Shown here: positions 6,619-60,990 of the stretch, piece by piece | How the letters are laid out: each line of letters opens with the position of its first letter | Numbering within the stretch: the stretch's first letter is position 1 | NCBI GenBank assembly: GCA_022711715.1 | Contig: JAKLEC010000001.1 | Location: 33,500-97,499, forward strand | DNA: 64,000 nucleotides | Reading direction: 5' to 3' | Source: Acidobacteriota bacterium | GTDB taxonomy: Bacteria > Acidobacteriota > Aminicenantia > UBA2199 | Notes under the pieces: generated by a model | Seen by the model: only the letters and a program-made list of their open reading frames with translations | Told to the model about the DNA's origin: nothing | The model's database searches: none | Translations under genes and position numbers: made by a program

Positions 6619-7338
6619 CTATTTTTTTTTGATAGTGCTTAAAACCTTATCCTTATCGATTTTTTTGGTGCAGAAGAACCAGTCGTGGCAGGTGACGCCC
6701 GCCTCCTTGCCCTCCATGCGCTCCTTGGCCACGCCGCAGGAGCCGGCGGTGGGCACGATGACGTCGTCGCCCGGGCGCCAGTCGGCCGGGGTGGCCACGC
6801 CGAAGGAGTCCGCCGTCTGCAGCGCCTGCAGCGCGCGCAGCAGCTCATCGAAGTTGCGGCCCATGCTCAGCGGGTAGTAGATGATGGTGCGGATGACGCC
6901 CTTGGGGTCGATGAAGAAGACGGCGCGCACGGCCTTGGTCGAGCTCTCGCCCGGCTGCATCATGCCGTATTTGTGAGCCACTTCCATGGTGATGTCCTCG
7001 ATCAGCGGGAACTTCACCTCGACGTTCTTCATCCCCTTGTAGTCGATCTTCTCCTTGATGATTCGCAGCCAGGCGATGTGGCTATACAGGCCGTCGACCG
7101 ACAGGCCGACCAGCTGGCAGTTCAGTTCGGCGAACTGGTTCTCCAGGGTGGCGAAGGTCATGAACTCCGAGGTGCACACCGGGGTGAAGTCGGCCGGGTG
7201 GCTGAACAGGATGATCCACTTGCCGGCGTACTGCTCGGGAAAGTTGATCTCGCCCTGGGTGGTGACGGCCTTGAACGAAGGAGCCTTGTCGCCGATGCGC
7301 GGCATCACGCCGCTTTGTGTTTCTTTGTTTGTTTCCAT
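6619..7338 (-). CDS. 1-Cys peroxiredoxin (Prx6/AhpC-TSA family), copy A
   Basis: FTPVCTSE peroxidatic Cys motif. ~88% nt identical over ~700 bp to 26423-27133. Start could alternatively be Met12 (MPRIGD). Confidence 0.85.
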   Translation of the reverse strand: METNKETQSGVMPRIGDKAPSFKAVTTQGEINFPEQYAGKWIILFSHPADFTPVCTSEFMTFATLENQFAELNCQLVGLSVDGLYSHIAWLRIIKEKIDYKGMKNVEVKFPLIEDITMEVAHKYGMMQPGESSTKAVRAVFFIDPKGVIRTIIYYPLSMGRNFDELLRALQALQTADSFGVATPADWRPGDDVIVPTAGSCGVAKERMEGKEAGVTCHDWFFCTKKIDKDKVLSTIKKK

Positions 7339-10528: not shown

Positions 10529-10584
10529 GTTCACCTCCTGTTCATCGATCCCCCGCCGCTGCGGCGGCCGGCAGAGGAATTGAG

Positions 10585-10820
10585 CCCAGGGAAGGCAGAG
10601 GGAGGAGAGAGGGAAGAATGAGGGAAGTGAGAGTGGGAAAAGCCATGTCATGAATTATTCCCACTTTGTCTTCCCCTTGTCTTTCCCTCTGCATTTCCCT
10701 CTCTCTTCCCTGGAGCCTGGAACTTCACATTTCAGCCTGCCATACGCCGTCAGCAGAACGCCTTGCGCCAAGGTCTTTCGGCTTCCCGTACGCCGTATGC
10801 CGTCCACCGTACGCCATCTT
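10585..10820. repeat. GA-rich/CT-rich long inverted-repeat module plus CCGTACGCCGTATGCCG module
   Basis: GGGAAGTGAGAGTGGGAA ... TTCCCACTTTGTCTTCCCC hairpin. Related copies at 36130-36240, 36510-36640, 38885-38935, 40375-40440. Tail shares CGTACGCCGTATGCCG with 23265-23290 and 40500-40850. Confidence 0.7.
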
Positions 10821-12479: not shown

Positions 12480-12830
12480 TGGCTCATATTATAGTATAAA
12501 TCTGACATATAGCCAAATCTTGCAGGGGATATCCGAGCAATCGTGACGCGTGACGCGTAACGCGTGACGAGTAAACGCACAACCAGCTATCGTGATTCGT
12601 GATTCGTGATTCGGAACAGCATAGTTCGGCCATGCTGTTGCTAACACAAACACTAACACCAACACGTAGCGCCCGGCAATTACCTTCATGCTGACACTGA
12701 CACTGTCACTGACACTAATTTTTATTGAATGCCGTACGCCGAGGTCCGCGTCCTGTCTCTTGTCACGCGTCACGCGTTACGCGTCACGAAGATCGTGCAA
12801 CTATGATCGACACCCGGCCGTCTTATATGG
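12480..12830. repeat. Composite intergenic repeat cluster: (TGACGCG)n, (ATTCGTG)n, (AACACW)n, (CTGACAC)n modules
   Basis: Same module types recur at 14845-15060, 21395-21545, 23330-23430, 30489-30520, 41135-41230, 46940-47030, 60400-60500, in both orientations. Confidence 0.8.
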
Positions 12831-14844: not shown

Positions 14845-15060
14845 CCAACAAGTCCTCCGTGACGCGTAACGCGTGACGCGTGACGCGTGAAGGCACATAG
14901 AGAGCAATAAAGAGTCGTTCCCATGGCATTCGCCATTCATCCGGAGGGAATCCCGGCAGGGGTTGGCTTTCTTTTGCGAGAATGCTTGCCACTTTGCATT
15001 TTCTCGTCACGCGTCACGCGTTACGCGTCACGATAGTCCGTTTCTTTGACACTGTCTTCC
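14845..15060. repeat. Composite intergenic repeat cluster ((TGACGCG)n in both orientations)
   Basis: CGTGACGCGTAACGCGTGACGCGTGACGCGTG at 14855 and the reverse-complement copy at 15003. Confidence 0.75.
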
Positions 15061-21209: not shown

Positions 21210-21560
21210 ACTCGGCGGACGACTAGGACAATCGCTTCCAGATGCTATAAGGTTCGACGTCCGAGGTTCGACGCTGCCGGCCCCGTCAGGGGCGGCGTCC
21301 CCGAGGAGCGATAGCTCCGAGTGGGATAAGACGTAACGAAGGCCAATTCGCTTGAGTGCTTAAGATTTCTAGTTAGTGGCTGATCGTTCTTGCTGACACT
21401 TTCACTGACACTGACACTTAGTCTTTGCTGTTGCTAACACAAACACGAACACGAACACGTAGCGCCAGGCAATCCCCTTCTTGCTGACACTGACACTGTC
21501 ACTGACACTGATATGTGGTCGCTGCTGTTTCTCGTCACTCGTCACTTGTCACTTGTTACT
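21210..21560. repeat. Composite repeat cluster: ~150-bp GC-rich hairpin element (family A, + orientation) followed by CTGACAC/AACACG/CACTYGT microsatellite modules
   Basis: 21245-21395 matches 46772-46915 at ~90%. Reverse-complement copies at 32850-32995 and 41250-41395. Confidence 0.85.
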
Positions 21561-21571
21561 GCAAACTCGGC

Positions 21572-26422: not shown

Positions 26423-27133
26423 TCACTTCTTCTTGATCGTACTGAGCACCTTCTCCTTGTCGATCTTCTTGGTGCAGAAGAACCAGTCGTGGCAGGTGAC
26501 GCCGGCTTCCTTGCCGTCCATCCTATCCTTGGCCACGCCGCAGGAGCCGGCGGTGGGCACGATGACGTCGTCGCCCGGGCGCCAGTCGGCCGGGGTGGCC
26601 ACGCCGAAGGCGTCGGCGGTCTGCAGCGCCTGCAGCACGCGCAGCAGCTCGTCAAAGTTGCGGCCCATGCTCAGCGGGTAGTAGATGATGGTGCGGATGA
26701 TCCCCTTGGGATCGATGAAGAAGACGGCGCGCACGGCCTTGGTCGAGCTCTCGCCCGGCTGCATCATGCCGTACGCCTTGGCCACGTTCATGGTGATGTC
26801 CTCGATCAGCGGGAACTTCACCTCGACGTTCTTCATCCCCTTGTACTCGATCTTGTCCTTGATGGTGCGCAGCCAGGCGATGTGGCTGTACAGGCCGTCG
26901 ACCGAAAGGCCGACCAGCTGGCAGTTCAGCTCGGTGAACTTGGCCTCCATGGAGGCGAAGGTCATGAACTCCGAGGTGCACACCGGGGTGAAGTCGGCCG
27001 GGTGGCTGAACAGGATGACCCATTTCCCCGCGTACTGCTCGGGAAAGTTGATCTCGCCCTGAGTGGTGACGGCCTTGAACGACGGGGCCTTGTCGCCGAT
27101 GCGGGGCATGCTGACGGTTGCGTTCTGTTCCAT
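26423..27133 (-). CDS. 1-Cys peroxiredoxin (Prx6/AhpC-TSA family), copy B
   Basis: Start MEQNATVSMPRIGD (ATG 27133). FTPVCTSE motif. Paralog of 6619-7338. 5 bp downstream of the Fur-family gene. Confidence 0.85.
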   Translation of the reverse strand: MEQNATVSMPRIGDKAPSFKAVTTQGEINFPEQYAGKWVILFSHPADFTPVCTSEFMTFASMEAKFTELNCQLVGLSVDGLYSHIAWLRTIKDKIEYKGMKNVEVKFPLIEDITMNVAKAYGMMQPGESSTKAVRAVFFIDPKGIIRTIIYYPLSMGRNFDELLRVLQALQTADAFGVATPADWRPGDDVIVPTAGSCGVAKDRMDGKEAGVTCHDWFFCTKKIDKEKVLSTIKKK

Positions 27134-31175: not shown

Positions 31176-32480
31176 ATGAAGTTTGTGAAAGCGGGATTAA
31201 CGGCCCTGAGCGCCTGGGCCGTCCTCACGGCGGTCCTGTCCGGCCAGGCGGTCAGCGGCCGTATCGTGGGCACGATCCGCGACGAGGAGAACCGCAAGCT
31301 GGCGGGCGTGCAGGTGACGCTGGTGAACGCCAACAACAACTCCAGGCGCACGACCTGCTCGGGAAAGGAAGACGGCATGTTCCGCATGCTCGGCCTGCAG
31401 CCCGGCTATTATCAGCTCGAATTCGAGCTGGCGGGCTACGAGCCCTATACGCTGGGCGGCATTGCCCTCTCGGTGGAGCAGTCGGTCACCCTAAGCGTCA
31501 AGCTGAAAAAGGCCGCGGCCCGCGGCATATCCGTGAGCGCCGCCTCCGGCTCCTTCATGCCGGAGCAGACGGCCTCGGCTCCCGACGGTCCCGCGGGGCC
31601 TCCCCCCGCCTCCGGCTTGCCCGAAGAGGATGATCAGCCGGCCAGGACGAACTTTTTCGCGGAGCGGCAGCGATGGGCGATCCATTTCAGCCTCAGCGCG
31701 AATTACCTCGCCGGAGGCGACAGCAATGCCTACCTGCGCGCATTCCCCGACCGCGTAGGGGATAGGATCACCGACTCATTCGAGACGATGCACTCGGGTT
31801 CCGACCTGAGCGTCGAAGTGGGCTTTCGCGCCACGCCGCGACTGGAGTTCGCCCTCGGTGCGGGACTGGTGAGGGCCCGGAAACGGAACAACGACCTGAG
31901 CTGCTTCAGGCCAGGGACCTACCAGAATCGTCCGACCTACTTTAAAGAACAATATATGATCGACCTTCAGGCCAAGACGTTCCCCGTGCAGCTGATCTGC
32001 CGCTATTGGCTGGCCAGCAAGGGAAGCCGCATCTACAGCGTGTATGTCGCGATCCTGTTCCATTTCGCGTCCTGGAGCATGAGCACCTATCACCAGCCGC
32101 GGATGAATTTCTACCAACCGTATGAGTCGATCGAGCTGGAAACCGCATCGCGGCAGGGCCTGGGACTCGCGGCCGGCGGCCGCATCGAATGGAGGCTGGA
32201 CGACCATCTTTCCTTCTCCGTCGACCTCGGCGGCCGCTACGCCCCGCTGCGATATTTTTCAGGAGAGCGAACGTATTATGGGAACGGGAATACTCAAGCT
32301 CCCCAGGTCAGCCGCGGCCATCTCTGGTTTTTCGAGTTTTCCGACCCGGCCAGCCACAAATGGGTGAAGGAGCTCAGCATCGGCGACCGCCCGGCAGGAG
32401 AGGGCATTCGCAACGTCTCCAGCGCCACGGTCGATTTTTCCGGCCTGGCCCTGCGCCTCGGGTTCCTGTTCCGCATTTAG
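31176..32480 (+). CDS. Outer-membrane protein: N-terminal carboxypeptidase-regulatory-like (CarbopepD_reg) domain plus beta-barrel
   Basis: Signal peptide. GRIVGTIRDEENRKLAGVQVTLVN prealbumin-like fold. C-terminal LGFLFRI. Confidence 0.5.
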   Translation: MKFVKAGLTALSAWAVLTAVLSGQAVSGRIVGTIRDEENRKLAGVQVTLVNANNNSRRTTCSGKEDGMFRMLGLQPGYYQLEFELAGYEPYTLGGIALSVEQSVTLSVKLKKAAARGISVSAASGSFMPEQTASAPDGPAGPPPASGLPEEDDQPARTNFFAERQRWAIHFSLSANYLAGGDSNAYLRAFPDRVGDRITDSFETMHSGSDLSVEVGFRATPRLEFALGAGLVRARKRNNDLSCFRPGTYQNRPTYFKEQYMIDLQAKTFPVQLICRYWLASKGSRIYSVYVAILFHFASWSMSTYHQPRMNFYQPYESIELETASRQGLGLAAGGRIEWRLDDHLSFSVDLGGRYAPLRYFSGERTYYGNGNTQAPQVSRGHLWFFEFSDPASHKWVKELSIGDRPAGEGIRNVSSATVDFSGLALRLGFLFRI

Positions 32481-33020
32481 CCGGAACAGGCTATCGCGAC
32501 ACGCGACAGGTAACAGCGATGGACGGATCCGTCGCGATTCGCATTTCGTGACGAAATCGGCAGACGGTTTACGGGGTACGGTTTACGGGAAAGCCATTCG
32601 GAGCTAACGCTCCTCGGGGACGCCGCCCCTGGCGGGGCCGGCGGCGTCGAACCTTGCTGCATCCGAAAAGTGTCAGTGACAGTGTCCGTGTCAGCAAGAA
32701 GGGAAAAGGGGTAGAGAGATAGAGTGGTAGAGGGGGAAAGCAAGAAACAGCCCGGGAGATTTCTTTGCATGGCCGCCACTTTTTCTCTTTCCCACTTTAC
32801 CTCTCTACCACTTTACCTCTCTAGCACTGAGCGTCCTGGCACAGCGAGCAAGAACGATCAGCCCCTAACTAGAAATCCTGAGCACCCAAGCGAATTGGCC
32901 TTCGTTACGTCGAATCCCACTCGGAGCTAACGCTCCTCGGGGACGCCGCCCCTGGCGGGGCCGGCGGCGTCGAACCTCGAACGTCGAACCTTAAAGCATC
33001 TTTAGTATTTCCTGATAGCG
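32481..33020. repeat. Composite repeat cluster with two reverse-orientation copies of the family-A hairpin element
   Basis: 32595-32655 (half element) and 32850-32995 (full). Also contains GTCAGTGACAGTG and GA-rich modules. Confidence 0.85.
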
Positions 33021-36079: not shown

Positions 36080-36700
36080 CGCACTGGGGTTCCACGTACC
36101 ACGTACCATGTTCCATGTTGAAGAGATTTCGGAAATCATCGGACGGCAAGGGAGAAGCTCAGGGAAGACAGAGGGAAGAATGAGGAAAGAGAGAGGGAAG
36201 AGAGAGTGGGAAAAGCCCTTTCTATGTGCTTGTGTCAGTGTTTGTGTTAGCGAAGGCAATCGGGCGAAACTAAAAAAAATGAAAGAGAATAAAAGCCTGC
36301 GCCTGGCGCAGTGACAAGCAGGATACCATGCGCAAGACAACCCCAAGCAAAGAACGCCGACAAGACAAACGGAGACCAGACCGCCGCGCCCAGGAGCGCA
36401 AAACAAATGGCCCCGCGCCGGGAGCCGTGCTTCTCTTCCCATTCAGCACCCTGCTGCTGGGTCCGCTGCTGGCCGGCGTCGAGCGGAAGCATCCTTCAGC
36501 TCGTCGAGCTCAGGGAAGATAGAGGGAAGAGAGAGAGAAGAGAAAGGGAAGAGAAGTGGGAAAAGTCCTTCCGAAAGTTCTTTCTCACTCTGTCTTCCCT
36601 CTGCCTTCCCTCTGTATTCCCTTTCTCTTCCCTGCAGTATCTTAGAGCTTGCGCTCCGGCGAGATTTTCCGCCCTGGCCGCTATTCATATAGTATAGGAA
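36080..36700. repeat. Composite repeat cluster with two GA/CT-rich inverted-repeat modules
   Basis: 36130-36240 and 36510-36640 related to 10585-10720. Also TGTCAGTGTTTGTGTTAG module. Confidence 0.8.
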
Positions 36701-38869: not shown

Positions 38870-39480
38870 CAGATTATATCGATACCCGTGAGCTCAGGGA
38901 AGAGCGAGGGAAGACCATGCTCGAGGAAGTCAGGGGCAAAGAGCCGATACGGATAAGGAACAAGTAAAAAGGTAAAAGGTAAGAGGAAGAGTTCGTTCCA
39001 ATTGCCCGCTGCTGCCACTGCCACAATGACCACCACAAAGATTCTGAAAGATCTTTTCCCACTCTCTTTTCCCTCTGGCTTCTCTGAGCTTCATTCAATT
39101 GCTGTTGCGAACACAAACACTAGCACCAGATCTATTCAAAATAACTTGCCAAGAGGCCTCGTGAAACTGGTAAGACTAAAGCTCCAAGTTCCAAGCACCA
39201 AATCCCAAATAAGCACCAAGCGCCAATGTCCAAATGGCCCAAACGAAGAGTAAACGCGCTCGATTATTGAATTACCGCCCAATTTTCCGGTGTAGGCACC
39301 CGATCGATTGAGCGCCCTGGTTTGGGTCATTGGAATTTGGGACTTGGAATTTGTTTGGAATTTGCTGCTTGGTGCTTGGAATTTTAGTCTTACGAGCACA
39401 TGCCCTAGCCATGAAAACCGTCTGGGGTAGCCCCAAAACCCTTTGCAGAACTGATTGTCTGTCAAAAAAACGAATATTTT
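38870..39480. repeat. Composite repeat cluster (GA-rich half-module, GTAAAAAGGTAAAAGG, family-B element in both orientations, TGGAATTTGG modules)
   Basis: 39170-39200 and 39365-39465 match 30580-30680. 38958-38985 matches 11713-11735. Confidence 0.8.
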
Positions 39481-40359: not shown

Positions 40360-40860
40360 AGCAAAAAGGACGATCTCAGGGAAGAGAGAGGGAAAACAAA
40401 GGGAAAGGCAGAGGGAAGCCGGAGTGGGAAAGGATTCCTGACAGAGCCTTTCCCGCATGGACCGATCTGTTGCTTTTACGAACCACTAATCACTTCGCCC
40501 GTGCCCTACGCCGTCCACCGCAGGGCCTTTTCTTCCTTTTTCCTTTTTCCTTTTGCCCTTTGCCTTTCGCCTTCCTCTTCCCCTCCGCCGTACGCCGTCC
40601 GCCGTCAGCCGTATGCCTTATGCTATGCTGGGGTTTTCTCTTACTTTTGCCTTTTGCCCTTTGCCCTTTGCCTTTCGCCTTCCTCTCCCCTCCGCCGTAC
40701 GCCGCATGCCGTCAGCCGTATGCCTTATGCCATGCTTGGGTTTTCTCTTACTTTTGCCTTTTGCCTTTTGCCCTTTGCCTTTCGCCTTCCTCTTCCCCTC
40801 AGCCGTACGCCGTATGCCGTATGCCGTCAGCCGAGTCCTGATATTCATAAATAGTTCCTA
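40360..40860. repeat. Tandem array, ~3 copies of a ~108-bp unit (CCGTACGCCG...CTTTTGCCTTTTGCCCTTTGCCTTTCGCCTTCCTCTTCCCCTC), preceded by GA-rich half-module
   Basis: Units at ~40586-40690 and 40691-40799 with partial copies on each side. No unique spacers, so not CRISPR. Confidence 0.85.
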
Positions 40861-41109: not shown

Positions 41110-41400
41110 GGGCGGCGACGGTACTCGCTGTCCACAGTGTCAGTGACAGTGACAGTGTCAGCAAGAAACATCTCCGAACGCTACGCGTTAGTGTTTGTGT
41201 TTGTGTTAGCAACAGCATGAACCAATACTACGTGACAGTGCCAGTGCCAGCAAGAACGATCAGCACCTGACTAGAAATTCTAAGCACCCGAGCGAATTGG
41301 CCTTCGTTACGTCGAACCCCGCTCGGAGCTAGCGCTCCTCGGGGACGCCGCCCCTGGCGGGGCCGGCAGCGTCAAACGTCGGACGTCGAACCTTGTCGCC
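41110..41400. repeat. Composite repeat cluster with reverse-orientation family-A hairpin element
   Basis: 41250-41395 is the reverse complement of 21245-21395 (~90%). Also CAGTGACAGTGACAGTG and GTGTTTGTGTTAG modules. Confidence 0.85.
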
Positions 41401-46749: not shown

Positions 46750-47045
46750 ACAGGCAATAAGCTTGCAGATGCGATAAGGTTCGACGTTCGAGGTTCGACG
46801 CTGCCGGCCCCGTCAGGGGCGGCGTCCCCGAGGAGCGTTAGCTCCGAGTGGGATTCGACGCAACGAAGGCAAGTTCGCTTGGGTGCTTAAGATTTCTAGT
46901 TTGTGGCTGGTCGTTATTCTAAAAAGGTTAGGATCATTTGAAGGCCTTCTCGAATCACGAATTACGAATTACGAATCACGATAGCTCAAATTCGTGCAGT
47001 TGCTGACACAAACACTAACACGATCACGCAGATCTTCTGTTCGCT
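46750..47045. repeat. Composite repeat cluster: family-A hairpin element (+ orientation) plus (ATTCGTR)n and AACAC modules
   Basis: 46772-46915 matches 21245-21395. Confidence 0.85.
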
Positions 47046-47049
47046 CCAG

Positions 47050-48867
<1,818 letters not shown>

Positions 48868-49009
48868 GTGCTGCAGACGCGCCGGCCTCGGGTCCGCAAG
48901 GGGTTCACGGGTCCTGCATCGGGTGATCGGTTGGGGAGCGGGAACGGGCCTTTCCGTCAGGGCCATTATACACCAGGCGGCGGGGAATGTAAATCATCGC
49001 CTCCGGCAT

Positions 49010-50237
49010 GGGGACGGAGGATTAAAATTTGACTTTTTCCCTGCGAGGTAAAAAGTCAATATTTAAAGTTCCGTCCCCCAGCAGGCAGGAAGGCAGCCTG
49101 CTTGCCTGCGCTGTATGGCCACAAAACTGATGCGGAGGACCAGCGATACAATGCAGCACACAGGGATGGCTAGAGGATTTTCCCATACCATACAGATTGA
49201 TGGACGAAATTCTAATTTTTGACCTTTATATTTCCTCTCTTCTTTGCATTGCGGTACAGATGCCCCAGAGACTGGTGCTTCAAGTCAAAGAAGAAGGGGA
49301 TTTCGCCTATATCCGAATATTTCAGCCCGGCCAGGTCATGCAGCCAGACCAATAGCTCGCCCCGCAGTCTTTTGCCTGCGTGGGATGAGCGGTCGATCTG
49401 CTTCAGGCTGACCTGGTGCTTCCTTTCGAACTCATGGACCACCTTTTCAGCGGGCTCAAAGAATCGGTCCTCCGCGCGCTTCCTCTGTGCATCGGCGGGC
49501 GTTTTCCTGCGGTCGAACTTTTCCGCCGCCTTATCCGGGAAATCATCGCTCCCGATCACAGTCCCGAACCGAGTCCGAATGATCGGCAGCTCCGCATCGG
49601 CCGGATCGCGCAAGACGGCAGCCAGACCCTGGCGCGACTTGAAGAGGCCTTCAATGAGGTCAGTCGCCAGCCACTCGCTCCTTCTCCTGGAAAAATACGC
49701 GCCAGCGCTCGACCAGGGATAATCCGTCGATACTGCAGCCAGGCCCGCCCTGACCGGATTCAGGAGGACGTAACGGATTGCCAGTGTCAGGTATCCTTCA
49801 TCCTGGATCAGGGAGGAGTGAAAGCGGTTTTGGAACACGTATCCCTGGCTCGCCGTCTTCCTGCGATAATACATGCCGTACTGGCCGTTCAACTGCCGGA
49901 GAAAATGGGAAAGCCGGCCTGAGCGATTCTCGACCACCAGGTGATAGTGGTTGTCTATCAGGCAGAAGGCGAAAATGCGGATGCCGTTCAGTTTGGAATT
50001 CCTGGCCAGAAGTTCAAGAAAATGGCGTTTATCATTGTCACCCGCAAGGATCTTTTCCCCGTTGATCCCGCGGCTGGTGACATGGTGAAACGCTCCAGGG
50101 TAAGTCAGCCTGGGAAGCCGCATGGTTCGATCTTAGTTGAGGAGCGAAACGAATTCAATGGGGACGGAGGATTAATTTTTGTGTTTTTCGTGATTCGATA
50201 AAAAAGTCAAAAATTAAAGTTCCGTCCCCAAAAGGAG
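49010..50237. mobile_element. REP-associated tyrosine transposase (RAYT) unit flanked by two AT-rich ~75-nt palindromic hairpin elements in direct orientation (REPtron-like)
   Basis: GGGGACGGAGGATTAAAATTTGACTTTTT...AAAAAGTCAATATTTAAAGTTCCGTCCCC at 49010-49082. GGGGACGGAGGATTAATTTTT...AAAAAGTCAAAAATTAAAGTTCCGTCCCC at 50157-50237. Confidence 0.7.
49212..50123 (-). CDS. IS200-like Y1 (HUH) transposase, REP-associated (RAYT), with C-terminal DnaA-C-like HTH extension
   Basis: NHYHLVV HuH motif. Catalytic Tyr region YVLLNPVRAGL. C-terminal LHDLAGLKYSDIGEI...LGHLYRN resembles DnaA domain IV. Confidence 0.75.
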   Translation of the reverse strand: MRLPRLTYPGAFHHVTSRGINGEKILAGDNDKRHFLELLARNSKLNGIRIFAFCLIDNHYHLVVENRSGRLSHFLRQLNGQYGMYYRRKTASQGYVFQNRFHSSLIQDEGYLTLAIRYVLLNPVRAGLAAVSTDYPWSSAGAYFSRRRSEWLATDLIEGLFKSRQGLAAVLRDPADAELPIIRTRFGTVIGSDDFPDKAAEKFDRRKTPADAQRKRAEDRFFEPAEKVVHEFERKHQVSLKQIDRSSHAGKRLRGELLVWLHDLAGLKYSDIGEIPFFFDLKHQSLGHLYRNAKKRGNIKVKN

Positions 50238-50321
50238 CGGGGATTGTAAATCGCGGCGATTCCCCATAGAATAGGGCCTTGACCGATGCGGCCGGAACCA
50301 CCGGGCCCGGAGGAGCACACC

Positions 50322-60354: not shown

Positions 60355-60990
60355 GTCAACACTGAAGAATCGCCCAATAATACAAGAAACTCAACGAACT
60401 CTGCGTGTTAGTGTTCGTGTTCGTGTTAGCAACAGCATGAGCCGACCTATTGCCGTTCTGAATCACGAATTACGAATCACGACAGATTCTTTTTTCCTTG
60501 TCAGTGCCAGCAAGAACGCTCAGCCCCTGACTAGAAATCTTGAGCACCCAAGCGAATTGGCTCTTGTTACGTCGAACCTCGAACGTTGAACCTTACAGTT
60601 CTTATAGGTTTTTCCCCGCCCTATGCCGCCAAGTGCCTTTCAACGTGGCACGTGGTACATGGTACGTGGCACCTTGAAAGTCCGGCGTACTTTTAGTTGC
60701 TGAATAGCATGGAGTACTACTTCTCTGCCTCTGCGCCCTGTGCCGCCGAGTGCCCTTCAACGTGGCACGTGGTACATGGGATGCCACTCGGGAGGAACCC
60801 TCGGGGACGCCGCCCCTGTCGGGGTCGGCAGCGTGGTACCTAGATGGACCGTCGTACTTCTAGTTGCTGAATAGCATGGAGTACTACTTCTCCGCCCCTG
60901 CGCCCTACACCAGGCGCCGAGTTCTATCGCTGTTCCTCGTCACTTGGCACTCGTCACTCAGCCTTTGAGCTCCTGGAAGGACCCCCCAGA
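60355..60990. repeat. Composite repeat cluster: GTGTTAG/ATTCGTR modules, partial reverse family-A element, isolated family-A central hairpin, and ~170-bp tandem duplication
   Basis: 60670-60790 duplicated at 60845-60920 (GTACTTTTAGTTGCTGAATAGCATGGAGTACTACTTCTC...). 60795-60840 carries the GGGGACGCCGCCCCTGTCGGGGTCGGCAGCG hairpin. Confidence 0.8.

Follow-up and report, generated by a model that had tools for sequence, protein, structure and literature searches.

A probable TIRtron with ends doubled into hairpins, inserted between bipA and GH38 in Candidatus Aminicenantes

Insertion sequences of the IS200/IS605 group encode a short TnpA (ca. 130 to 150 aa), are often accompanied by tnpB, and are present in several near-identical copies; direct repeats of 15 bp or more are not a product of their Y1-type transposition. 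In REPtrons, the stem of each REP is preceded on its 5' side by a guide tetranucleotide (GTAG or an equivalent); the REPs lie in inverted orientation around the gene and belong to a family present in many dispersed copies throughout the genome. The TnpA_REP (RAYT) of the E. coli REPtron (PDB 4er8) is reportedly the subject of work by Nunvar (2010), Ton-Hoang (2012), and Messing (2012). A further class, the TIRYT proteins and the TIRtrons that encode them, was described by Di Nocera, De Gregorio and Rocco (2013, BMC Genomics 14:522; PMC3733652). RAYT Group 1 (Bertels et al. 2017; PMC5581495) corresponds to subclass 2.1 of the TnpA_Y1 proteins, which, including its division 2.1.2, is treated by Quentin et al. 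(2018, BMC Genomics 19:475; PMC6006769); the class-2 signature Y---NP is defined there as well. This literature describes no biochemical activity of a TIRYT and leaves their function and mobility open (PMC3733652, PMC6006769).

Positions 49010-50237 of our window (the whole 64-kb stretch of DNA that was analysed) are best explained overall as a TIRtron, with a probability of roughly 0.7: a 1.2-kb TIRYT-encoding element whose ends are doubled into hairpins (Table 1). The element belongs to a class already described, and what is new is a well-preserved further member, not a new system.

Table 1. Features of the element and of its immediate flanks (positions in the window)
Feature	Position	Strand	Basis or detail
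Left target copy	48979..49009	+	core 48980-48995 GCGGGGAATGTAAATC, with the bipA -35 (TTTACA, minus strand)
Hairpin downstream of the gene, TIR dimer, left terminus of the inserted DNA	49010..49078	+	arm 49010-49038, loop 49039-49049, arm 49050-49078
Degenerate right-end inverted repeat	49202..49231	+	inverted match to 50198-50227, 83%
TIRYT gene, 303 aa	49212..50123	-	ORF and Pfam Y1_Tnp
Helical HTH domain, residues 222-303 (C-terminal 82 aa), predicted DnaA-domain-IV-like helix-turn-helix fold	49215..49460	-	AF2 and Foldseek
TIRYT-type linker domain, residues 141-221	49461-49703	-	
HUH/Y1 nuclease core, residues 1-140	49704-50123	-	
Catalytic Tyr118, class-2 signature Y-x-x-x-N-P, followed by Y135-x-W137-S-S139	49770..49772	-	
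HUH motif H59-Y60-H61, within NHYHLV	49941..49949	-	34-homolog alignment
Weak promoter-like TTGAAT-17-TAAGAT	50130..50158	-	read by eye; under the promoter-scan threshold
Hairpin upstream of the gene, TIR dimer, right terminus of the inserted DNA	50160..50229	+	arm 50160-50188, loop 50189-50200, arm 50201-50229
Right target copy	50237..50267	+	core 50237-50252 GCGGGGATTGTAAATC, with the GH38 -35 (TTGTAA, plus strand)

The encoded protein scores 31.2 bits with Pfam Y1_Tnp (PF01797), for which the cutoff is 23. In the alignment of 34 homologs conservation spans the whole length of the family: H61 and Y118 are invariant, as are N122, Y135, W137, and S139; H59 is nearly so (at least 90%), and the stretches Y118VLLNP (within YVLLNPVRAG) and Y135PWSS are invariant or near-invariant. 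Its assignment to the class-2 (RAYT-like, Y---NP) HUH/Y1 proteins, and not to the TnpA of IS200/IS605, is supported. The AF2 model has a pLDDT of 86.6, and the solved fold closest to the nuclease core is TnpA_REP, 4er8 (E 1.6e-6, TM 0.72). The window holds a single copy of the gene, the exact 303-aa protein is found at one locus only across all contigs that carry it, and a tnpB was found beside the homologs in none of the genomic contexts inspected. The GC content amounts to 0.558 for the gene, 0.37 to 0.42 for the hairpins, and 0.651 for the window, with a GC3 of 0.69 for the gene versus 0.92 to 0.97 for its two neighbours. The promoter-like sequence stops 6 nt ahead of the ATG, so near that it would yield a leaderless or near-leaderless mRNA. 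Across the family, TANNNT stands at most 16 nt from the start in 69 of 76 loci, the commonest spacing being 6 nt, and an SD-like motif precedes the gene in one of the 76.

Judged by sequence comparison, the protein is closest to the TIRYTs (RAYT Group 1, TnpA_Y1 subclass 2.1) and not to the REP-associated RAYTs. BLASTP against the proteins in Additional file 5 of Di Nocera et al. (2013) gave 8e-35 for aba_2776, 7e-32 for pca_3049, 2e-27 for gbm_2474, and 1e-26 for sml_4509; the 11 long published TIRYTs range from 1e-20 to 8e-35 and the four RAYTs from 5e-4 to 1e-13, and the two short Koribacter TIRYTs, aba_1552 and aba_3477, reach only 4e-6 and 2e-5, within the RAYT range. The alignment to the published TIRYTs covers residues 2-233. 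The NCBIfam model NF047646 (REP_Tyr_transpos) scored 69.5 bits, under its cutoff of 80. These comparisons bear on a first alternative, the classical REPtron, in which a RAYT treats the flanking hairpins as REP or REPIN units and spreads or maintains them genome-wide. The RAYT-like character of the protein, its sub-threshold REP_Tyr_transpos match, and TnpA_REP as its best fold are what one would expect of such a system; its clustering with the TIRYTs instead of the RAYTs, at an NCBIfam score that stays under the cutoff, is not.

The last 82 residues are predicted to fold like domain IV of DnaA. AF2 models this domain at a pLDDT of 92.1, and its top Foldseek matches in the PDB are 1j1v, 8btg, 3pvp, 3r8f, and 2hcb (TMq 0.64 to 0.72, rmsd 2.2 to 2.5); the match of 1j1v_A to residues 222-303 extends over 76 columns (TMq 0.70, rmsd 2.3 Å). 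The E-values for these matches to DnaA domain IV, about 0.4, are not significant alone, and the predicted fold may be described as DnaA-IV-like or sigma-region-4-like. Searches by sequence gave no support for kinship with DnaA: Pfam PF08299 matched none of the 34 family members at E<=1; Bac_DnaA_C, HTH_23, and HTH_28 had no match in this clade (34 members), HTH_23 or HTH_28 being carried by the distant homologs P0105, P0109, P0110, and P0119; a comparison by hhalign with domain IV of E. coli DnaA returned an E of 0.46, though in the expected register; a profile search of the PDB with the domain yielded no DnaA sequence match; and among the best 150 of 298 matches of the C-terminal profile to 1.84 billion representatives there was no protein of DnaA length. 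Much of what the preliminary description of this DNA had said of the gene stands: a 303-aa HUH/Y1 protein with a catalytic tyrosine, single-copy-like in the window, with AT-rich flanks and a DnaA-IV-like tail (as a predicted fold, with a TM of about 0.7). Its figures for the tail (ca. 130 aa) and for the GC content of the genome (68%) have to be corrected to ca. 82 aa and to the 0.651 of the window, and of the two Pfam models it had named for checking, PF01797 was found and PF08299 was missing from all 34 members.

The two hairpins are imperfect palindromes of 69 to 70 nt that lie in the same orientation and have GGGGACGGAGGATTAA...TTAAAGTTCCGTCCCC in common. The window has two occurrences of the pattern GGGGACGG-N30-60-CCGTCCCC, and 100 shuffles have none; the folding energy of each hairpin, as single-stranded DNA, is about -22 kcal/mol (z = -6.5 to -7.8). 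Each consists of two TIR arms placed back to back around a short loop; over 30 nt, the outermost arms (49009-49038 and 50201-50230) show 83% complementarity. The degenerate right-end repeat includes the stop codon and the codons for the final residues of the protein (KVKN-stop). It is intact as AAAGTCAAAAATTAA / AGTTCCGTCCC in five related loci (L147, L148, L149, L150, and L068), and it is the ancestral IR_R of the plain TIRtron. In the lineage studied here each terminus bears a second arm, which faces inward and completes a 70-nt hairpin. No Rfam family was found anywhere in the window. A GC-rich, GGGGACGC-containing repeat family of the window was considered as a substrate of the enzyme and dropped: it has only a tag-like 8-mer in common with the arms, and this 8-mer, GGGGACGS, is unenriched in the window (17 occurrences versus 12.6 expected). 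The third arm, inside the element at the end of the gene, had been overlooked in the preliminary description.

Terminal repeats of this kind are a property of the family. Of 65 homologous loci, 56 have a gene-flanking inverted repeat that outscores all of 325 shuffles; these TIRs measure 25 to 35 bp, nearly all open with GGGGACGG or a near variant, and they are situated at a constant distance of about -44 from the ATG and 5 to 60 nt past the stop. Plain members have such inverted repeats alone, with no hairpins at their ends. About half of the arms carry two tandem 8-bp sub-repeats after the tag, often TTGACAnn: 26 of 56 arms (0.9 expected) match themselves in 7 or more of 8 positions when shifted by 8 nt, and at no other shift. 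The upstream arm of the family members provides the -35 of the gene, and the arm sequence is conserved across phyla. Partial Mantel tests of the inner arm versus the C-terminal domain, with the N-terminal domain controlled for, gave r = 0.17; when the two domains were exchanged, r was 0.24. Because both values are significant, the covariation is not specific to the HTH domain, and it is confounded by phylogeny.

Hairpins on both sides of the gene with conserved arms would fit the REPtron as well, and so would the dispersal of same-tag hairpins in some other genomes: a scan of genome contigs (59 loci, no Aminicenantes contig among them) found GGGGACGGAGG-tagged hairpins dispersed in genomes with TIRYT-like genes, namely Planctomycetia and Pseudohongiella, and also in Stenotrophomonas, a TIR-rich host (PMC3733652). 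At the locus itself, however, the hairpins start with GGGG, have no GTAG tag, and are in direct rather than inverted orientation; the 64-kb window contains no third hairpin outside the two gene flanks; and the 331 kb around 56 relatives hold just nine extra arms, most of them adjoining the gene. A REPtron is therefore decidedly improbable here. The preliminary description had applied that label and supposed that the protein may maintain a repeat family of the genome; with a gene nearer to the TIRYTs and bracketed by TIRs, not REPs, the label has to be given up, and the repeat family finds no support in these counts. Its two directly oriented hairpins with common termini were confirmed, at 69 to 70 nt instead of ca. 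75. It had also stated that its reading would fall if the hairpins occurred only here and the protein grouped with IS200/IS605 TnpA: the former was found in the window, the latter was not.

In three sister lineages bipA and GH38 are directly adjacent, and these empty sites indicate that the 1228-bp element was inserted between the back-to-back promoters of the two genes. The insertion occurred in an Aminicenantes ancestor and doubled the -35 region that the two promoters had in common. Filler at 50230-50236, missing from the empty sites, precedes the right target copy. Among other TIRtrons, a flanking duplication above the 99th percentile of shuffles was seen in only two of 54, so target duplication is not general. 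The locus is syntenic among orthologs down to 81% identity, and relatives at 63 to 77% identity occupy other genomic contexts; assembly GCA_041890195.1, of the same Aminicenantes lineage, has the ortholog at 86%. One might think of an active insertion sequence of the IS200/IS605 type, a single-strand 'peel and paste' transposon in which the same-strand hairpins would be the subterminal structures LE and RE. This would account for the Pfam Y1_Tnp match, for directly oriented hairpins whose positions coincide exactly with the two ends of the insertion, for the absence of the element from sister lineages, and for the different contexts of the more distant relatives. It does not agree with the flanking duplication, which IS200/IS605 does not make, with the class-2 Y---NP signature and the long C-terminal extension, which are not of the IS200 type, or with the plain family members, whose ends are inverted repeats and not hairpins.

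The history of the locus since the insertion also speaks against active transposition. Among syntenic orthologs the gene has a dN/dS of 0.14 to 0.18 at a dS of 0.45 to 0.64, and the C-terminal domain a dN/dS of 0.10 to 0.20. The arms are 90 to 97% identical in the upstream hairpin and 93 to 97% in the downstream one, versus 25 to 58% and 18 to 62% for the respective loops, 33 to 69% for the spacer, and 73 to 76% for third codon positions. Purifying selection has thus acted on the gene and the arms, not on the loops or the spacer, at a fixed locus. Such synteny at a dS of about 0.5, under strong purifying selection, together with the single locus of the exact protein in all contigs carrying it, makes an active IS200/IS605-type element most improbable.

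The same data could suggest a relic, immobile and co-opted by the host, with a nuclease inactive on its own ends and with arms that either insulate or terminate transcription between the element and the promoters on its two sides or bind a host factor. The element lies exactly between the bipA and GH38 promoters, its gene is co-directional with bipA, so that read-through would need stopping, its arms are conserved beyond silent sites, and the locus is fixed and single-copy. As intrinsic terminators, however, the hairpins had to be rejected: they lack a T-tract, and the terminator scan did not flag them. Purifying selection on the catalytic residues and on all three domains argues that the enzyme is still used, and the arms have the sequence with which members of the family end in different phyla, an indication that the encoded protein, rather than a host factor, recognises them. 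We consider the relic quite unlikely.

Taking the locus as a TIRtron, we infer the following working scheme. The HTH domain would dock onto the double-stranded sub-repeats of each arm, and the HUH domain would nick one strand at or beside the GGGGACGG tag of arms in the extruded or single-stranded state, e.g. at a replication fork. Bound to the upstream arm, the protein may also repress its own promoter. In this genome the element would be a resident single-copy gene, RAYT-like, and not a proliferating insertion sequence. A bolder proposal is that TIRYTs represent a distinct HUH/Y1 working mode, a transposition guided by double-stranded DNA, unlike that of IS200/IS605 and of REP/RAYT. The DnaA-IV-like HTH would then read two tandem 8-bp boxes in each double-stranded arm, the boxes would at the same time form the -35 of the element, the HUH domain would cut at the adjacent, phylum-spanning GGGGACGG tag, and the whole TIR-bounded unit would remain capable of integration, in the present case at a -35-like site and with ca. 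15 to 30 bp of the target duplicated. We regard this proposal as conceivable though rather unlikely; if true, it would offer a natural, compact, and sequence-programmable HUH nickase.

Apart from the mechanism, the locus is a clean natural case for the study of TIRYTs. The catalytic residues are intact, and the model of the C-terminal domain is of high confidence. Comparison of occupied with empty sites among sister lineages fixes both ends of the inserted DNA to the base, and the arms, being selectively conserved, can be directly synthesised as substrates. Regularities of the family lead to testable hypotheses on how DNA is found and cut: the GGGGACGG tag, two 8-bp boxes per arm, a -35 in the upstream arm, a predicted leaderless mRNA, and duplicated tags outside the ends. 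For annotation, the gene is an ordinary one derived from a mobile element, and neither a REP system nor a component of replication initiation.

Among known systems, the DnaA protein is related to this element only through the predicted fold of domain IV (PF08299; 1j1v), at a TM of about 0.70, and the arm repeats (8-bp units, e.g. TTGACAnn) are unlike the 9-bp DnaA box. With the IS200/IS605 TnpA (IS608, ISDra2) the element has in common the HUH/Y1 fold and one-strand hairpins at both ends; it differs in the signature of the tyrosine helix, the lack of a tnpB partner and of multicopy behaviour, the flanking duplication, and the basic ends of its family, which are inverted repeats and not subterminal hairpins. 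The E. coli TnpA_REP is similar in the fold of the nuclease core, in its single copy, vertical retention, and purifying selection, and in having cognate DNA structures on both sides of the gene, whereas the window lacks GTAG-tagged REPs and a dispersed family, and the TIRYT protein has double the length and a further two domains. TnpA_Y1 subclass 2.1, especially 2.1.2, agrees with the element in Y---NP and a serine motif (WSS) behind the catalytic helix, in a long C-terminal extension of HTH character (Bac_DnaA_C, HTH_23, or HTH_28 in the subclass, a predicted fold in the element), and in the lack of nearby REPs, a low copy number, and a patchy taxonomic distribution (PMC6006769); the three Pfam models, however, miss the present clade. 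The TIRtrons themselves share with our element a RAYT-like HUH/Tyr protein longer than 200 aa between TIRs instead of REPs, a GGGG tag that opens the repeats at a fixed distance from the gene, TIRs that are in some cases dimeric, and a 3' repeat that can overlap the coding sequence (PMC3733652). Our element differs from them in a tag, GGGGACGG, that agrees with GGGGWSAS in 7 of 8 positions (G for A at position 7), in ca. 70 to 80 extra C-terminal residues (the HTH domain) beyond the 216 to 238 aa or so at which published TIRYTs end, in both termini being doubled into hairpins of direct orientation, and in a host phylum, Candidatus Aminicenantes, that is absent from the hosts listed (PMC3733652).

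The element at 49010-50237 is a well-preserved Candidatus Aminicenantes member of the already described TIRYT/TIRtron class. The two imperfect palindromes that flank its ORF share their terminal 16-mers; the gapped pattern taken from their ends has two matches in the window and none in 100 shuffles, and as single-stranded DNA each palindrome folds into a hairpin of about -22 kcal/mol (z = -6.5 to -7.8). A flanked Y1 transposase with two hairpins had been recognized in the preliminary description and is confirmed; that description gave the palindromes as ~75 nt (they measure 69-70 nt) and the GC content as 68% (the window has 65%), and missed a third, degenerate arm, i.e. a further copy of the terminal inverted repeat. 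With GC values of 0.37-0.42 in the hairpins and 0.558 in the gene versus 0.651 in the window, and a GC3 of 0.69 versus 0.92-0.97 in the two neighbours, the element region is distinct in composition from its surroundings.

Coordinates of the element, its neighbourhood and other repeats (window-based; loci with an L-number are fetched comparison loci with their own coordinates)
Feature	Position	Strand	Remarks
TIRYT-type ORF	49212-50123	minus	303 aa
GH38 alpha-mannosidase-like gene	from 50286	plus	divergent from the 303-aa ORF
bipA/typA	47050-48867	minus	co-directional with the 303-aa ORF
Imperfect palindromes	49010-49078; 50160-50229		either side of ORF; direct orientation
Third, degenerate arm	49202-49231		overlaps stop codon of the 303-aa gene
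Inserted DNA	49010-50237		hairpin at each extreme end
Duplicated target core	48980-48995; 50237-50252		one copy per promoter
Promoter span	48965-48993	minus	
Promoter span	50244-50272	plus	
Empty sites	L151:4316-4500; L153:4308-4500; L154:4329-4500		
196-aa ORF in element-free sister	L151:7490-8080		faint Y1_Tnp match; 1.2 kb downstream of bipA
Composite intergenic repeat family	21234-21561	minus	hexamer arrays GTGTTA/GTGTCA; heptamer arrays CACGAAT/TACGAAT, CGAACCT/CGAACGT, ACGTGGC/ACGTGGT; conserved core of about 80 nt (…GCAAGAACGATCAGCCCCTGACTAGAAATCCTGAGCACCCAAGCGAATTGGCC…) and GC-rich hairpin (GGGGACGCCGCCCCTGGCGGGGCCGGCGGCGTC)
Same family	32480-33000; 41130-41400; 60390-60860		
Same family	46761-47045	minus	
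Purine-rich intergenic repeats	10583-10649; 36145-36573; 38896-38985; 40367-40417		11-nt period (AGGGAAGAGAG...)
107-nt unit	40538-40859		three in tandem
300-nt direct repeat	6623-6922; 26427-26726		91% identical; 19.8 kb apart
Heptamer arrays	12539-12789; 14855-15033	both	TCACGCG TCACGCG TTACGCG TCACGA

Pfam Y1_Tnp matches the protein above cutoff over residues 15-119. Homologs number more than 1000, and about 90 among the matches listed are full-length (~300 aa) at 41-86% identity, their hosts being Aminicenantes, Acidobacteriota, Stahlbacteria and many metagenomic bins. In an alignment of 34 homologs H61, Y118, N122, Y135, W137 and S139 do not vary and H59 hardly does, which gives the HUH motif and the class-2 signature 'Y---NP ... 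WSS'. The nuclease core of the AlphaFold model (pLDDT 86.6) finds its best solved match in E. coli TnpA_REP (PDB 4er8; E 1.6e-6, TM 0.72), followed by IS608 TnpA and ISDra2 TnpA. By signature and fold the protein is thus RAYT-like, as first proposed, with a tail that is DnaA-IV-like in its predicted fold. The label 'REPtron' is abandoned, since the gene is bracketed by inverted repeats, the match to the NCBIfam equivalog of REP-associated transposases reaches only 69.5 bits (cutoff 80), and BLASTP favours the TIRYTs. The latter are the products of 'TIRtrons', RAYT-like genes between inverted repeats that share a GGGGWSAS motif, whose spacing from the gene is constant (Di Nocera et al. 2013, PMC3733652). 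They form subclass 2.1 of TnpA_Y1, near which REPs are not found, onto which RAYT Group 1 of Bertels et al. 2017 maps, and whose subgroup 2.1.2 carries C-terminal Bac_DnaA_C-, HTH_23- or HTH_28-like domains (Quentin et al. 2018, PMC6006769). Searched by BLASTP against the sequences printed in Additional file 5 of Di Nocera et al. 2013, the window protein matches eleven long published TIRYTs at 1e-20 to 8e-35 (aligned residues 2 to about 233) and four published RAYTs at 5e-4 to 1e-13; two short Koribacter TIRYTs fall within the RAYT range.

Residues 222-303 were modelled separately (pLDDT 92.1) and compared with the PDB by Foldseek. The top match is DnaA domain IV (1j1v_A; TM 0.70, rmsd 2.3 Å, 76 columns; likewise 8btg, 3pvp, 3r8f and 2hcb), with sigma-70 region 4 ranking after it. 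PF08299 is present in none of the 34 family members, hhalign of the tail with E. coli DnaA domain IV yields E 0.46, and a PDB profile search with the tail returns nothing; the tail profile has only 298 matches in 1.84 billion representative proteins, and the 150 of these that are listed, all of at most about 380 aa, include no DnaA. With Foldseek E-values of about 0.4 for the DnaA matches and negative results in all tests at the sequence level, the models support a 'DnaA-domain-IV-like HTH' of about 82 residues (not ~130, as initially estimated) as a predicted fold, not as a detectable homolog of DnaA.

The flanks were inspected at 80 fetched loci encoding family members. At most of them GGACGG lies about 44 nt 5' of the ATG and CCGTCC 5-60 nt 3' of the stop, and a 25-35-bp inverted repeat brackets the gene (e.g. 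GGGGACGGTGCTTGACATTGTGACA ... TGTCACAATGTCAAGCACCGTCCCC), scoring higher than any of 325 shuffled controls at 56 of 65 testable loci. The window hairpins are two such arms face to face across an 11-12-nt loop, each a miniature of the element without its gene, and the degenerate arm is the ancestral right end. The rise of the double-hairpin arrangement can be followed through the relatives. L149 and L150 (63-65% identity) are simple elements with inverted repeats only, and in them the right arm supplies the final codons and the stop; in L068 and L148 (63-77%) an extra inner arm completes an upstream hairpin; L006 (86%), L147 (81%) and the window carry a hairpin at each end. Two tandem 8-bp units (TTGACAnn, GTCAGAAT, GTTCAAAC, GTGCAAAA, CTTGTTTT) follow the tag, the sequence starting the arm, in 26 of 56 arms (0.9 expected), with self-match at offset 8 only. 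At many loci a TTGACA -35 makes up the first unit. Of 76 loci, 69 have a TANNNT -10 upstream of the ATG (modal gap 6 nt) and only one has an SD-like motif, which together point to leaderless transcripts and to a left end that contains the promoter. In the mechanism we infer, the HTH domain would bind the two 8-bp boxes in double-stranded DNA and bring the HUH domain into position for a nick at the GGGGACGG tag or next to it while the arms are extruded or single-stranded; at the window locus hairpins could form locally from the doubled arms, and occupancy of the left arm would repress the gene's own promoter. In a partial Mantel test arm sequence was not tied specifically to the HTH domain. Of 78 flanks, 11 have additional same-orientation copies of the tag just beyond the ends (1.2 expected). 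Such short tandem 'stutter' copies, of the tag or of a whole arm, occur just outside the inverted repeats of L088, L126, L140, L141, L115, L107 and L072 (e.g. CGTCCCCAATTCTC three times in tandem).

The hairpin has no dispersed family in the window, where a third copy is absent, and the 331 kb around 56 relatives contain only 9 further arms, mostly abutting the gene; these counts speak against the upkeep of a genomic repeat family once considered for this protein. The other repeat families of the window have nothing in common with the arms except a non-enriched GGGGACGS 8-mer, and the composite intergenic family, unrelated to them, has no Rfam match. Some TIRs form dimers or small dispersed families, chiefly in Stenotrophomonas maltophilia (PMC3733652). 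Our genome scan for the hairpin ends found GGGGACGGAGG-tagged hairpins in Stenotrophomonas, Collinsella, a Planctomycetia MAG (7 copies), Pseudohongiella and Fermentibacteria, with TIRYT-like genes of 226 and 240 aa beside them at the Planctomycetia and Pseudohongiella loci. The dispersed hairpins of Stenotrophomonas (L014, L016, L030, L037, L040, L054, L063) and Collinsella (L020, L028, L032, L041, L046, L047, L050, L052, L057, L058) end exactly in GGGGACGGAGG...TTCCGTCCCC as in the window and have genus-specific inner stems; no TIRYT gene was found within the 8 kb fetched around them, and the TIRYT literature cited here does not mention the Collinsella family.

The exact 303-aa protein occupies a single locus across all contigs carrying it. 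Its orthologs at 86% and 81% identity retain the order GH38 / gene / bipA, relatives at 77% or less lie at other genomic positions, and in sister lineages (BipA 86-89% identical) GH38 and bipA are adjacent, 172-193 nt apart, without the element. Aligned with the window, these empty sites contain GGGGTTGTAAATC once, and within it the -35 hexamers of the back-to-back promoters of bipA and GH38 (TTGTAA, plus; TTTACA, minus) overlap in one TTGTAAA. The element was inserted at this site and duplicated the core, which left both genes with a -35 of their own; as much as 21-30 bp may have been duplicated. Across the family such flanking repeats are not general, exceeding the 99th percentile of shuffles at only 2 of 54 loci. 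Gene and arms have both been maintained since, because dN/dS is low in three syntenic orthologs (0.14-0.18 at dS 0.45-0.64, with constraint in all three protein domains) and the arms are 90-97% identical to the window, versus 73-76% for third codon positions, 33-69% for the spacer and 18-62% for the loops.

The chief value of the locus is that it defines, with unusual clarity, substrates on which a TIRYT could first be tested biochemically. The published TIRYTs differ from the window protein in that they stop at the point where its HTH domain starts, and the upkeep of both gene and arms matches the behaviour reported for domesticated RAYTs.
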